A program made the position numbers and the translations under genes. This document shows, one piece after another, positions 4,140 to 62,803 of a stretch of 64,000 nucleotides of DNA. Within the stretch, counting starts at the first letter, position 1. The number at the start of each line of letters is the position of its first letter. The DNA is from Eledone cirrhosa. Taxonomy: Eukaryota. Below the pieces are notes generated by a model. That model saw nothing but the letters and a program-made list of their open reading frames with translations, did no database searches and was not told the DNA's origin. Where the stretch lies: assembly GCA_964016885.1 (NCBI GenBank), contig OZ024742.1, forward strand, positions 19,530,001-19,594,000, written 5' to 3'.

Positions 4140-5172
4140 TAACTTTGAATAACTTTGAAATGTTTTGGCCAGTATTGGCCCAGGCCATGTCTAACTTAAT
4201 AGCACCACCTGGCGAAGTCTTTCAATTCAGGATTTGGGCACCATGGCCCATTCGAGAAGAGAATTACTGTTTGCGGAGACATATCCGGGTGTGGGTGGTT
4301 TGTCCGGGATTACTTGGAGGAATTTGTCCAAAGACTTCTTGAATTTTGTGTGGTCAGTTTCTGTTTTGACGTGTCCTGGTGTGATGTTGAAGAGAGCAGG
4401 GCCAATTGAGGTGAAATAAGTGTGCCGTATTGTTGTTATGAGTTGCGATTTAGATTTTTGTATGGGACGGATAGCACGGGGCCCAAGCCTTGGGTGTATC
4501 TTGAAGGCGATGCCAACATCATTTGGGCAGTGATGATGGAACATTTTCCACATCATGCAGATAATATAACGCTCACGGCGACGTTGGAGTGAGTAAAGTT
4601 TCAGCTTTTCTAGTCGACCCCAGTAGTCAAGGTCTGACATGCCATCTATCTTTTTCGTGATTGCCCTTTGAGGAGCTTCAAGTTTCATGATACTTTGTTT
4701 CGTGTGGGGAGACCACAGTGGACAACAGTATTCAAGGTGTGGTCGGGCAAAAGTAGAGAAGAGAAGGATAATGGTGTGGGAATCTCTCGACTGGAAGGTT
4801 CTGAGGATCCAGGAACACATTCTGCGGGCCATGTCAACTTTGCTGCTTATATGCGTGGCCCAGCTTATGTTGCTGTCCACGGTTACTCCCAAGTCTCTGA
4901 TGTTGTTAGATGCCACGAGAGTTTCCCCGGAGTGAAGGGAGTACGGGAGTTTCAGAGCATCCTCTTTTCCAAAGTGGATCAGTTCGAATTTGTCTTCGTT
5001 CAGTAACATGTTGTTCTTTTCCGCCCATTGGGTAACAGCCAGTAGGTCTGACTGAAGGCTTATCCGGTCATCCACGCCATTGATGACCTTTTGGAGCTTG
5101 GAATCATCAGCGAAAATTTTAATGTTGCTGTGTTTGATGATGTCAGTGATGTCATTAATATAGATGATGAAA
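4140..5172 (-). mobile_element. 5'-truncated CR1/L2-group LINE (RT C-terminal half and 3' UTR)
   Basis: The frame of ORF 4227-5075 extends upstream as FIIYINDI...IKIFADDSKL; it contains RDLGV, RPHLEYCCPLWSP and LYSLQRRRER; the 3' end has a duplicated TTCAAAGTTA tail. Confidence 0.9.
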
Positions 5173-5214
5173 TTAACGAAGAGAAAATAATGTAAAGTTA
5201 AGGTTTGTATATTG

Positions 5215-5385
5215 AAGGGTTTAATAATATGTGCGATGAAAAGAAATTGTTAATATGTATTAAGAATAATATTTAAGGGTTTAATAATATGTGCGATGGA
5301 AAGAAAATGTTAATATGTATTAAGAATAATATTTAAGGGTTTAATAATATGTGCGATGGAAAGAAAATATTGATATGTATTATTA
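5215..5385. repeat. 60-bp tandem repeat, ~3 copies
   Basis: AAGGGTTTAATAATATGTGCGATG recurs at 5215, 5275 and 5335. Confidence 0.9.
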
Positions 5386-5807: not shown

Positions 5808-6408
5808 TTAGCTGTATACTTTATGGAATGTTCTGTGGAATTTATGCAAGCAGAGAGAAAACAAGTCAGTGCGTCTGTTTATTATAGAATTTAAATTAGA
5901 TATAATGGTAAATGTTTCATTTAGACAGAGATTGCAAGTCTTGGATAGAGAACTGTTCAAGTAGAGAGAAGCAGAAGAAACCTTTTTCCAAGAGATGTTA
6001 TATTTAATATTTTTGTCTTTCAAGGACCATATGAGTTCTGAGAAAGCCGTGTTGGTTCTTTTAAGTTGGTATTTAAAAGACGAATGATGATTATAAAGAC
6101 GAGCTTTAAAGGAGGTGGAAGTGGAGCCAAAATAGGTGAAGGAATTGGTGTCAGTTATAACTTTACATTCGTAGATTAAGTTTTTATCAAGACAATGGTT
6201 GTTGAGAGGACATTTATTTTTAACAGGGCAATTGCAATTGCGATTAGAGAGATTATTAACGAGTGACCTAGTGTTATCTATAGAAGGAATTGGATTGGAG
6301 AAGTTATTTGCGATAGGAATAATAGTTTCTTGATTTAGAATGGGATTAAGAACATTTAGCGAAGTTGTGTTTGACGTTGTATTTGGGTTTGCAGAAATTA
6401 ACCTAGAG
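5808..6408 (-). mobile_element. Truncated Penelope-like element, GIY-YIG endonuclease domain (probably Hydra clade)
   Basis: CNCx5CPLxxxC-LIY..YFGST..FKARLYNH..IWSLK..CNLCLNE..NRR..CLH pattern; clade assignment is from recalled motifs, not a tree. Confidence 0.75.
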
Positions 6409-7310
<902 letters not shown>

Positions 7311-35400: not shown

Positions 35401-35472
35401 TATTGCAGCCCTATATATATATATATCACATAAGAAACGGAGAATCAGTGTTGCGACGAATAAAATTTATTA

Positions 35473-35567
35473 GACATATTACGATCGTTTCTCTGGCGAC
35501 CAGCTCGAGGGACGATTGATGTAATGATCGAACCTGACTCCGAAATCGCAAGGTCGTCAGATACGTC
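35473..35567 (-). ncRNA. Type I minimal hammerhead ribozyme, 62-nt stem II region
   Basis: GACGUAU-CUGACGA-[62 nt]-GAAA-CGAUCG-UA-AUAUGUC; 7-bp stem I, palindromic stem III; base of stem II is imperfect. Confidence 0.75.
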
Positions 35568-35572
35568 TCGAT

Positions 35573-37710: not shown

Positions 37711-37900
37711 AATGTGAGTGCCGGGTTCAATCGGGGGTAACCACAGTAAGTAAGGTACTCAATACATTAGTAGAGTGTAAACATTATGTTTCATACAGAA
37801 CTAGAACTATTTCATTAAAAAATAAATCTTCAGGAAAGCCTGAAGATTTTTTTTTATGAAACAGTTCTAGTCCTGTAGAAGCCAGTTCTATATTAAACAT
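37711..37900. mobile_element. Family Y (TA)n-inserted fold-back element with hammerhead-like cores on both strands
   Basis: Homologous to 57327-57475; TCTTCAGG-AAAG-CCTGAAGA inversion centre; CTGAAGA..GAAACAGTTCTAG. Confidence 0.65.
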
Positions 37901-47729: not shown

Positions 47730-47825
47730 AATTTCAGGTTCAATACCACTATATAAGACGTTAGCCAAGAGACTTCTTCTATAACCTCAAATGAAATTTG
47801 CTTGACGGAAACTATGCGAAAGCCC

Positions 47826-48462
<637 letters not shown>

Positions 48463-48649
48463 GTAGATAAATCTACCAAGAGTTTACGGTAGTGTCCAAT
48501 CCGTATGAAGAACTCAATGTATTCCGGATATCATGGAAAGAAGAGATGTAATGAAAATCACTTTCGGTGAAAGATAAACGGTATACAGAGTCAAGATAAA
48601 ATATTAAACAAATAATGAATAAACAATTCCTTATATTAAACAAAAAAAG

Positions 48650-48804
48650 TTCATTATTTAACGATCGTTTCTAGGGTATATATGTGTTATAATTGGTATG
48701 CATATTCAACAGATCTATGTACAAAATTATACAAAATTATACAAATTATCAAGATTAAATATACATACCTAACACATATATACGCCGTCTTCAGAAATAA
48801 TGAA
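48650..48804 (-). ncRNA. Type I hammerhead ribozyme, 116-nt stem II region
   Basis: Mirror copy of 50322-50476. Confidence 0.8.
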
Positions 48805-50321
48805 GTATATTTATTGATAATAACAACAATTCAAAATATCAGTTCAAAATTGACCAATGAAAACACAAAGGGTTAAAAGCAGTTCGGTGTGTGTATATAC
48901 ATGTAAAATCCTTACACATATTTTACAAAAATGTGTGTATAATTTGTATACGCATACTAAAAAGATGGATGCAAACACAAAATTTCAAGGTTAATATCTC
49001 TGTAAGCTTAATGCGCTGATAAGATGCGCATTGATACTTATGGAGTCAAGCATATAAATATATTTTTTCATACTCACACATATCAGTATAATCACACATA
49101 CATGCGCGTATATGCATAAATATACACATAACCACGAACATACAAACACACACACTCTCCCACTCACATTTATATATGTGGATATAAAATCATAAGCACA
49201 TAGAAATTAAGTCACTCACATAAAACACTGGCACACACATTTCAAGATCAAGATACAGAAATTAGGTGGGAGGGGGGGGAGGGGTCAGTATTCAATTGTC
49301 TGAGCAGACTGCCTAATATAAATGTATCTATAAATTAAGAAAAATAAAAAAATAAAACAATAAAATATAATAAATATAATATAATATACATACACATACA
49401 GATATATATACACATACATACATGTACGCGCACATAGAGATATTTACGCATACACACATACACACATACATATACAGTCATACACACACATACACTTACA
49501 CGAACATACACATACATATATAAAAAGATATATATATACACACACACACACGCGCAACACATATGTGTTGCGCGTGTGTGTGTGTGTATATATATATCTT
49601 TTTATATATGTATGTGTATGTTCGTGTAAGTGTATGTGTGTGTATGACTGTATATGTATGTGTGTATGTGTGTATGCGTAAATATCTCTATGTGCGCGTA
49701 CATGTATGTATGTGTATATATATCTGTATGTGTATGTATATTATATTATATTTATTATATTTTATTGTTTTATTTTTTTATTTTTCTTAATTTATAGATA
49801 CATTTATATTAGGCAGTCTGCTCAGACAATTGAATACTGACCCCTCCCCCCCCCTCCCACCTAATTTCTGTATCTTGATCTTGAAATGTGTGTGCCAGTG
49901 TTTTATGTGAGTGACTTAATTTCTATGTGCTTATGATTTTATATCCACATATATAAATGTGAGTGGGAGAGTGTGTGTGTTTGTATGTTCGTGGTTATGT
50001 GTATATTTATGCATATACGCGCATGTATGTGTGATTATACTGATATGTGTGAGTATGAAAAAATATATTTATATGCTTGACTCCATAAGTATCAATGCGC
50101 ATCTTATCAGCGCATTAAGCTTACAGAGATATTAACCTTGAAATTTTGTGTTTGCATCCATCTTTTTAGTATGCGTATACAAATTATACACACATTTTTG
50201 TAAAATATGTGTAAGGATTTTACATGTATATACACACACCGAACTGCTTTTAACCCTTTGTGTTTTCATTGGTCAATTTTGAACTGATATTTTGAATTGT
50301 TGTTATTATCAATAAATATAC

Positions 50322-50476
50322 TTCATTATTTCTGAAGACGGCGTATATATGTGTTAGGTATGTATATTTAATCTTGATAATTTGTATAATTTTGTATAAT
50401 TTTGTACATAGATCTGTTGAATATGCATACCAATTATAACACATATATACCCTAGAAACGATCGTTAAATAATGAA
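50322..50476 (+). ncRNA. Type I hammerhead ribozyme, 116-nt stem II region
   Basis: UUCAUUAUUU-CUGAAGA-[116 nt; GUAUAUAUGUGUUA pairs with UAACACAUAUAUAC]-GAAA-CGAUCG-UU-AAAUAAUGAA; 10-bp stem I. Confidence 0.8.
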
Positions 50477-50530
50477 CTTTTTTTGTTTAATATAAGGAAT
50501 TGTTTATTCATTATTTGTTTAATATTTTAT

Positions 50531-51380
<850 letters not shown>

Positions 51381-51799
51381 GTAGATAAATCTACCAAAAT
51401 ATACGGTAGTGTCCAATCCGTATGAAGAACTCAATGTAATCCAAATATCATGAAAAGAGAAGATGCATTCAAAAATTTTCGATGAAAATCACAGGAAAAA
51501 AGAATCAAGATAAATTAATAAATACAATGAATAAAAACAAAGAACATATTCCTTATATTAAAAAAATCATCATTTTACGATCGTTTCTAGGATATATATG
51601 TGTGTTGGTATGTATATCATATAGATCTATGTAAAAATTTTACAAACTATCAGAGGCAATATACATACCTTCACATATATATGGTGTCTTCAGAAATAAT
51701 AATAAATTATACATACCAACACGCATATATATCCTAGAAACGATCGTAAAATGATGAATTTTTTAATATAAGGAACTTGTTCTTTGTTTTTATTCATTG

Positions 51800-54864: not shown

Positions 54865-55594
54865 TGGTCGTTTTTTTTAATCTTATATATTTGTGTATTG
54901 ACTATATTATTCGTGTCTATTTTCATTCTATAAGAATTATAAATAATTTGTAATGTTATTTATACAACAATAAAGGATTGGTTTGCTAAAAAAGTTGATA
55001 ATATATTCAAGAGCCCCAATTACCATAGGTACAAATCTAAAGGAATCTATGTTGACAAAAATAGGGGTTCTTTAATCTTACTTATTTCTGAGTATGGAAC
55101 CTGTGTTGATTTCTAGAAATATCATCAGTCCGAGTTTCAAATCTGTGTGAAACCAAGTCCTCATCTATTCCTGCTCTAAAATATCAAACAAATATTTTTC
55201 GTATCATATTCTACCGCAACAACTTGGATATTTAATCCCCTACCGTCACAAAAATACACCCCTTTTCCACATCAAGTGTTGCACTGAGATTGTCATGGTC
55301 ATAAGCAGTACTGGACTTACCTATAAACTAAATAAGCTCTAGCTTAGGGTCACACACCCTCGGGGGCCTCATGTTTTAAAATATTTTTATTTTATCATTT
55401 ATCATTAGTTTTTATTCTTTAACACTAAATCATAAACAATTACACACACACACACACATACACACACACACATTTATGAGTAAATTTTACTCATTTACTA
55501 GATGTATTTTAGGATCAGGCACAGCCAATATGTAGTAAATATATATATATATATATAATATAAGATCAAAAGATGGTTAAAGGAGTTCCATGTA

Positions 55595-55661
55595 TTTTAT
55601 TATGCGCATTTCAAAAACAAACATCATCATGCAATAATATTTGTCTTTTCATCAGATAAAA
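55595..55661 (-). ncRNA. Type I minimal hammerhead ribozyme
   Basis: UUUUAU-CUGAUGA-AAAGACAAAUAU..AUGUUUGUUUUU-GAAA-UGCGCA-UA-AUAAAA. Confidence 0.85.
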
Positions 55662-55897
55662 CAGGAGAACATGATATGAAGGCTAAAAAACACTTGTGGA
55701 TAGTGCAGTTTTAAATCAACATATCAACATATCATTGCATGATGATGTTTGTTTTTGAAATGCGCATAATAAAATACATGGAACTCCTTTAACCATCTTT
55801 TGATCTTATATTATGCATACTCCAGTCCTACAAACTGTAGAGTGCTTCTTATCCGATATCTGCATTGCTTTATTGTACTACAATAAAACTCACCTCC

Positions 55898-56006: not shown

Positions 56007-56062
56007 ACTGCTATATATATTTCGATGATAGCCATTGAATGGCTATGACCTCATCAGGCAGT
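56007..56062 (-). ncRNA. Type I minimal hammerhead ribozyme
   Basis: ACUGC-CUGAUGA-GGUCAUAGCCAU-UCA-AUGGCUAUCAUC-GAAA-UAUAUA-UA-GCAGU. Confidence 0.88.
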
Positions 56063-57556: not shown

Positions 57557-57688
57557 GTAAGAGTTCTATTTAAATTGTTGGGATACAACAAGCAAATGTT
57601 TTTATAACTGATATAAAGCACTCAACAAATATTTGGAGTAAACATACGATATTAACAAATGGAAACTATATTTATAAAACCATATTTA

Positions 57689-57749
57689 TTTCATTATACA
57701 TATTTCAAGGGCACCAAGTTAAATTATGGTGTGCTTTCATCAGATAAAA
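57689..57749 (-). ncRNA. Type I minimal hammerhead ribozyme
   Basis: UUUUAU-CUGAUGA-[30 nt, CACCA/UGGUG]-GAAA-UAUGUA-UA-AUGAAA. Confidence 0.8.
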
Positions 57750-57833
57750 TATAATATAGATCAGTTTTATAAATAAATATTGACATCCCCTTAAGAATGA
57801 ACCAATACTAGATTAGCGACAACTCCGGATAGT

Positions 57834-62748: not shown

Positions 62749-62803
62749 TATAGTTTACATAAATCTTTCGTTGCACATCTGCAACATCGTCAGTGGTGTT
62801 ATA
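62749..62803 (-). ncRNA. Hammerhead ribozyme, second PLE unit
   Basis: Copy of 58626-58680, ~180 nt upstream of the ATG at 62570. Confidence 0.7.

Follow-up and report, generated by a model that had tools for sequence, protein, structure and literature searches.

Stem II, the middle arm of the hammerhead ribozyme, is usually 10-25 bases long, whereas 99-116 bases are predicted at one locus of Eledone cirrhosa. The locus therefore raises the question of whether such an insert is a genuine stem II, and what kind of element carries it. We analysed a 64,000-nt stretch of the genome (the window), in which a type-I hammerhead motif lies at 50322-50476 (+). The motif consists of a 10-bp stem I (5' strand 50322-50331, 3' strand 50467-50476), the core CUGAAGA (50332-50338), a 116-nt stem II insert (50339-50454), and a segment at 50455-50466 holding GAAA, the palindromic stem III ACGAUCGU and a GUU triplet, with the cut predicted at 50466/50467. 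According to the predicted fold and the subfamily alignment, the insert comprises a C.A junction, 2 bp, a conserved C.C mismatch, an irregular helix of ~30 bp, a conserved apical internal-loop motif and two apical 10-nt tandem units. The predicted folding energy was -44.1 kcal/mol for the 116-nt hairpin and -48.2 kcal/mol for the whole motif (z -6.73), and none of 200 shuffled sequences was equally stable. The long irregular hairpin that had been predicted for the longest inserts was thus borne out for 50322-50476.

Scanning the window for type-I hammerheads, defined by a stem I of at least 5 bp plus a stem III, returned seven motifs with spacers of 27, 30, 36, 62, 99, 116 and 116 nt, compared with a mean of 0.15 (maximum 1) in 40 block shuffles; at a stricter cut-off there were six motifs, and none in the shuffles. 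The 27-, 30- and 36-nt motifs lie at 56007-56062 (-), 57687-57751 (-) and 55593-55663 (-), and pattern counts assign the last of these to a high-copy family. The 62-nt motif at 35472-35568 (-) belongs to a multi-copy family with a C.A junction and U.C at pair 4, and the 99-nt motif at 51566-51703 (-) has a GUA site and one broken basal G-C pair. These spacers agree with the original prediction, and each comes with complete type-I anatomy. The second 116-nt motif, at 48650-48804 (-), is an identical mirror copy inside a near-perfect inverted repeat (48591-50535) that contains both 116-nt motifs, and is therefore not independent of 50322-50476; the repeat was taken from the inverted-repeat list only, the general repeat search being swamped by (TA)n. 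A 17-nt spacer had been listed as well, and the cores at 62793 (-) and 58670 (-) have that length but fail the type-I detector. They accompany the full-length Penelope-like element (PLE) ORF P0001 (58938-62591, -; DKSG motif, canonical clade), which is unrelated to the parent of the long motifs. A further hammerhead-like family, absent from the original list, was seen at 37833 (-), 37840 (+), 40482 (-) and 57454 (-), its spacers being 11-13 nt long and its stem III looped.

Inverted-repeat and copy comparison resolved the 116-nt pair into a head-to-head insertion. Its right arm (49563-50530, +) is the 3' part of the element and ends in (TA)n at an end point 65 nt after stem III (+65), and its left arm (48460-49562, -) likewise holds that element's 3' part, here with the end point at +202. 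An assembly fold-back artefact was rejected as the source of the palindrome, since head-to-head pairs with unequal arm ends recur genome-wide. Beside it lies a short copy of the sister 99-101-nt subfamily (51378-51708, -; 78% identical to the 116-nt element), followed by a short inverted arm with the 3' half of the 99-nt motif (51708-51770, +). The (TA)n target tracts at 47820-48470 and 50530-51380 are punctuated by TAGA/TGTA repeats resembling the 3'-terminal letters of the element, as if short terminal pieces had been added repeatedly.

We counted genome-wide matches to the exact pattern CUGANGA-spacer-GAAACGAUCGU against a reversed-pattern control. Matches and controls were 128 and 9 for spacers of 9-39 nt, 123 and 12 for 40-70 nt, 3738 and 5 for 71-101 nt, and 9335 and 14 for 102-132 nt. 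Spacers of 71-132 nt thus gave 13,073 exact core matches (19 controls), and those of at least 71 nt made up 13,073 of the 13,324 matches with this stem III. The pattern for the 27-36-nt types (24-40-nt spacers) gave 71,202 exact matches, most with the pair-4 mismatch, and nine controls; this is comparable to the 126,247 hammerheads reported for axolotl, among the largest counts in the literature consulted. An apparent 65-nt family proved to be a 20-nt family with a CCGAUGA core, which the pattern had caught because a variable CUGANGA lies upstream; some of the 40-70-nt matches are consequently false, and a switch of cores is no longer proposed there. Members of this 20-nt family (L068, L077, L142, L144, L286, L287) often carry CCGAUGA instead of CUGAUGA (U4C), possibly an ancestral CpG state. 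In run X1 the DNA depth of the pLTR unit exceeded that of the ORF start ~50-100x. Low-share coverage of parts of the motif in runs of organisms B and C was not taken as support.

Whether the insert is a stem II was examined in an alignment of 15 representatives, 13 of them drawn from 26 clusters of 105 distinct sequences and two being the window copies. Paired cells accounted for 95.1% of this alignment, in which three rows are misaligned in the upper helix. Eight of 39 pairs changed on both sides, in 22 cells compared with 8.4 after shuffling (0 of 500 shuffles reached the observed value), although these counts ignore kinship; slid controls gave at most two such pairs. The predicted stem II hairpin therefore covaries across subfamilies and closes on the core, closure being one of the points on which the original prediction was staked. 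CUGANGA and GAAA occur together with A15.1-U16.1 and H17, and stems I and II close the junction. The pairing had also been described as kept between the diverged copies at 50322 and 51567. This holds in part: in the basal register one pair differs by full compensation (G-C/A-U) and another by a change on one side only (G.U/A-U), but within the first 16 pairs the 51567 copy has G-C replaced by C.C and U-A by A.A. The real covariation support comes from the genome-wide subfamilies and not from this pair. The RNAalifold consensus chose the inactive pairing described below, not stem I.

The basal pairs were surveyed over 25 clusters with at least two distinct sequences (spacers 20-116 nt), after 31 singleton clusters had been dropped. 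Pairs 2, 3 and 5 were formed in 24, 23 and 23 of the 25 clusters, with mixed pair types. Pair 4 was formed in 3 and unpaired in 22, with C.C in 15. Pair 1 (10.1-11.1) was formed in 14; the 62- and 99-116-nt families have C.A there and not G10.1-C11.1. U.U mismatches have been reported at this position in natural hammerheads. The pair-4 mismatch is a candidate for a tertiary contact between stems I and II. The apical internal-loop motif is common to the subfamilies and nearly invariant, at 65-79% stem II identity to the 116-nt form. Among five subfamilies the core is identical except at N7, with flanks 47-86% identical, a comparison that is partly circular in that the core itself served to find the subfamilies. 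Of 30 copies retrieved by DNA similarity, 23 pass a strict core test and the core of two more is intact on inspection.

The original prediction placed the long motif in small elements derived from the window's full PLE. This was not upheld: the long motif belongs to a separate, autonomous Hydra-like PLE. P0001 was rejected as parent, its best local match to the actual parent ORF, P0002, being 27% over 67 aa (E 0.006); because the 17-nt motif belongs to P0001, the spacer series as originally drawn mixes families. Searching the 3.0-Gb genome with a 201-bp query gave 574 candidates; all 40 that were scored were 100% identical, and many stood in tandem ~6.6 kb apart. In five of seven fetched tandem regions an uninterrupted 830-codon frame lies between two ribozyme copies 6.5-6.9 kb apart; in the remaining two regions the copies are inverted or partial. 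One unit measures 6559 bp, with its ATG 488 nt after CUGA, and the ribozymes lie in the pLTRs flanking the RT-EN ORF, as for dimeric PLE hammerheads. The 3.6-kb 3' UTR (L032:3466-7000) is largely microsatellite, yet 96-99% alike between copies.

P0002 is an 813-aa ORF with RWR, DKT, a CxCx5C linker (CNCRNKTNC), YIG and CxxC-E-N-CxH (CRLC-E-N-CNH). It thus has the motif set by which the Hydra clade is described, namely RWK-like, DKT, CxCx5C plus a GIY-YIG at the C-terminus with CxxC/CxH around E and N (PMC8557442), and by eye its N-terminus resembles Hydra-1_Obim. Hydra-like insertion traits, (TA)n preference and inverted 5'-truncated copies, are present. A length below 3 kb and a canonical hammerhead are usual in the clade, not diagnostic of it; here the element is 6559 bp long and its stem II is non-canonical. 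A Naiad identity was rejected, the endonuclease being C-terminal. Pfam gave no significant match for P0002 or P0001, and of 104 homologues of P0002, 103 are unnamed and one bears an unrelated host-gene name. Judged by its sequence, the carrier is an autonomous, recently amplified Penelope-like retrotransposon with Hydra-clade motifs, very young and apparently still active. Members of the 99-105-nt subfamilies sit 0.7-1.4 kb downstream from ORF ends that share 74-86% identity with P0002. Since insertions are nested, a tie between Hydra ORFs and the 20-63-nt and 95-97-nt families is no more than suggestive; the 36-nt family has its end joined, in inverted orientation, to a Hydra-like endonuclease fragment (5808-6443 of the window). 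This fragment (5808-6600, -) is 38% identical to P0002 and is interrupted downstream by a LINE-type RT fragment (4227-5249). P0001 (58938-62591, -), which lacks a Pfam match, has a long asparagine-rich insert comparable to those described in rotifer Penelopes (PMC3846280).

As had been predicted, standard models miss this variant. Rfam gave no match over the whole window at gathering score, and the six matches obtained over 50200-50600 at E<=10 included no hammerhead family; the published PLE hammerhead descriptor allows a spacer of 7-17 nt (PMC8557442). The accompanying statement that PLE hammerheads usually have a very short stem II was too strong, since helix II in metazoan PLEs is given as 7-8 bp, larger than usual (PMC4209133), yet that is still far shorter than here.

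Folding predictions suggest that the motif would act as a dimer. The stem III palindrome ACGAUCGU has a loop of 0 and cannot form within a monomer; as a duplex it is worth -10.0 kcal/mol. For a monomeric RNA beginning 7 nt before CUGA (-7), an inactive fold is predicted in which UUUCU pairs with AGAAA and sequesters GAAA (P 0.80-0.94). A double hammerhead (-99.2 kcal/mol) is 5.8 kcal/mol better than two monomers (-93.4), but a strand-swapped dimer (-106.0) beats it by 6.8, so that activity would probably need a chaperone. A need for a chaperone has been reported for the Anolis PLE ribozyme (PMC11167929).

We further compared the ends of 44 copies taken from the pattern lists, flanks disregarded. 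The 5' ends lay 1-9 nt upstream of CUGA in 22 copies, 13 of them at -7, and the 3' ends lay at +202/203 after stem III in 19 and at +65 in 14. Since 3733 copies run through -10, -7 is not the sole boundary. At -8 genome-wide, 1730 copies have a letter other than C, 428 of them G, as against 5 G among 100 copies listed at -7. By eye, 27 G junctions divided into 13 in which G was not templated by the opposite arm, 10 in which it was, and four in duplicated filler. An extra 5' G can be the trace of a copied cap, as known from L1 work; a literature search on this point found no paper. The -7 ends, often after an extra G, suggest a capped start there. In the window this position is the A at 50325, which sits in TCATT; short genomic copies begin at this A more often than anywhere else, and it is the putative transcription start. 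An Inr-like TCACT, close to this TCATT, is noted in a rotifer pLTR (PMC3846280), and an internal TATA-less promoter is described for Penelope of D. virilis (PMC2377424).

Head-to-head pairs provide a second view of the 5' end. Median half-gaps were 65, 67, 30, 9 and 6 nt for spacers of 20, 36, 63-65, 99-101 and 114-116 nt, one of the three pairs in the 63-65-nt bin being mis-binned. Gap and spacer were correlated at rho -0.65 over 35 pairs, which are pseudoreplicated over ~7 families. Half-gap thus falls as the spacer grows, so that the distance from 5' end to GAAA stays near 90-130 nt, with a single 95-nt pair as exception; a pairwise comparison of upstream extent was noisy. One subfamily (L163, L165, L180) has AGACG at +28 to +32 from the putative start, the usual DPE position; it is absent in other subfamilies. 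Copies starting at the predicted cut numbered three of 30 sampled among 587 matches, and all three are also explicable by microhomology or snap-back through stem I. Such starts being rare, most templates would have been uncut. At L320 and L340 the antisense core passes directly into the sense sequence that follows the cut site; cDNA snap-back through stem I, or the capture of a cleaved fragment, would be expected to leave such a junction.

Taken together, we consider it reasonably probable that the motif is a slow ribozyme close to the cap, gated by dimer formation, with the leader enclosed in its stem II. Pol II would start 7 nt before CUGA, so that a ~100-nt leader, upstream of the core in the short-stem relatives, would be enclosed in stem II here. 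Stem II would thereby have grown into the predicted 99-116-nt hairpin at the putative capped 5' end, and selection on its pairing would hold the junction shut. A lone ribozyme would rest in the inactive fold, and cutting after GUU/GUA would occur only once its palindromic stem III had found a partner in a second copy, supplied by the 5' and 3' pLTRs of a tandem transcript or by two RNAs. Cutting would probably be slow and helped by the element's protein at the C.C or apical motifs, which conservation favours as contact site. Most RNAs would be reverse-transcribed uncut from internal start points +65/+202, and the products would be thousands of head-to-head copies in (TA)n, 210-350 bp long and holding the ribozyme only. 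Several results speak against this cap-proximal scheme: C.A in place of the conserved G-C at 10.1-11.1, the U17 of the 116-nt family, the RNAalifold consensus, the scarcity of starts at the predicted cut, the copies running through -10, the advantage of the strand-swapped dimer, and two 95-97-nt families whose stem II branches (two hairpins on an 8-9-bp base) and which have neither the C.C mismatch nor the -7 boundary. The branched loci are L160-L162, L167, L102, L127 and L168. A bolder proposal, which we offer only tentatively, is that a Penelope hammerhead subclass with C.C at pair 4 dominates the genome (>80,000 copies), and that in its extreme lineage the 5' half may have moved to the cap and the promoter-bearing leader may have been swallowed into stem II, yielding a protein- and dimer-gated switch between capped and cut RNA.

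Other explanations have to be weighed against the cap-proximal ribozyme. Stem II might simply be a tolerated expansion: an ordinary dimeric PLE hammerhead would have lengthened it by slippage because its core is indifferent to stem II length, function would depend on the basal pairs alone, and the distal hairpin would be idle. The apex does lengthen by 10-nt tandem units (105-, 115- and 126-nt forms have 1, 2 and 3), internally deleted copies exist, and engineered hammerheads tolerate long stem II inserts. However, the distal helices stay paired, the apical motif is nearly invariant across subfamilies, and the forms of at least 71 nt make up nearly all matches with this stem III, so that we regard mere tolerance as unlikely. 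The reverse view, in which a catalytically near-dead ribozyme retains its structure because the element's protein binds or lands there, or because it serves at the DNA level as an internal promoter, draws on C.A at 10.1-11.1, the U17 of the 116-nt family, the dominant inactive monomer fold and the few copies beginning at the cut site. It also gains from the Anolis PLE, whose hammerhead is described as dispensable for insertion in vitro, with no reads from its cut site (PMC11167929), and from the internal promoter of D. virilis Penelope (PMC2377424). Yet the flanks diverge while the core nucleotides, the pairing of stem I, the palindrome and H17 are all retained, and a DNA promoter would make compensatory base pairs unnecessary; we consider this account quite improbable. 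Finally, the hairpin could be a substrate for small-RNA processing or A-to-I editing, released by the ribozyme, as its ~30 bp AU-rich irregular duplex might suggest. The original prediction had raised small RNAs too, and the analyses made found no support for them. Two miRNA-precursor models match weakly (14.7 and 17 bits against gathering scores of 101 and 67), but at chance level, and private stem II changes show no A>G excess (12 per 4635 A, compared with 12 T>C per 6015 T), making such a role very improbable.

Compared with known systems, the motif shares most with the Hydra-clade PLE hammerheads (Craig et al. 2021, PMC8557442), in which a pLTR location near the 3' end, type-I topology, a short near-palindromic stem III, common U17 or A17, a frequent core-adjacent mismatch, (TA)n targets and the same ORF motifs are described. 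In contrast, all 26 Hydra/Repbase rows of File S2 of that work have a stem II of 3-7 bp with loops of 3-10 nt, against 99-116-nt inserts here, and lack a C.C internal mismatch; the elements are generally below 3 kb, whereas the present one measures 6.56 kb. In File S2 stem II is longest in two plant PLE-X elements (~45-55 nt, marked non-canonical; PMC8557442). The minimal dimeric PLE hammerheads (Cervera and de la Pena 2014, PMC4209133) are likewise described with a palindromic stem III needing a dimer, dual opposite-strand motifs close together, mostly solo truncated copies and low expected activity, but their consensus has a bulged nucleotide, G10.1-C11.1 and a 3-8-bp helix II, as against the C.A junction, conserved pair-4 mismatch and ~30 bp helix here. 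The Naiad 'HHR_half_core' cases (PMC8557442) also have core halves beyond descriptor reach (35-50 nt); they are reported as non-canonical leftovers with no structure given, whereas here a covarying hairpin closes a full junction. Non-LTR retrozymes (PMC7229834; bioRxiv 10.64898/2026.07.22.740005) are similarly short non-coding hammerhead units from PLE pLTRs, but are described as head-to-tail tandem repeats; here the short copies seen are dispersed or head-to-head and the autonomous parent is apparently active. Head-to-tail short arrays were not the pattern among our 44 sampled copies. The discontinuous Clec2 hammerhead described in 2008 by Martick reportedly also has core halves far apart; it is said to be type-III, with an unstructured insertion in another stem and in a host mRNA, unlike the mobile element here. 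In viral hammerheads, a 'long helix II' is reported as 6-8 bp. The PLE hammerhead literature searched, whose scope excludes Lunse 2017 and Arkhipova 2017, which may describe either, showed no comparable stem II and no C.C mismatch. The predicted mode of working is like that of known dimeric PLE hammerheads; the stem II length and the G10.1-C11.1 features differ.

On comparative grounds, the long-armed hammerhead motif is real, high-copy and conserved, a new variant of a kind already known. Because hammerhead censuses use short-stem-II descriptors, a single animal genome holds at least 13,000 copies that are invisible to them. It is with these descriptors, too, that some Penelope clades have been claimed to be ribozyme-less, and such claims can now be re-examined. 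Through their sharp 5' and 3' ends, genomic copies also show at which points PLE transcription and reverse transcription begin, and the natural stem II series of 20-126 nt with one conserved mismatch provides a direct way to ask what PLE ribozymes do. If the proposed switch is true, Penelope clades now called ribozyme-less would hide similar long-armed hammerheads.
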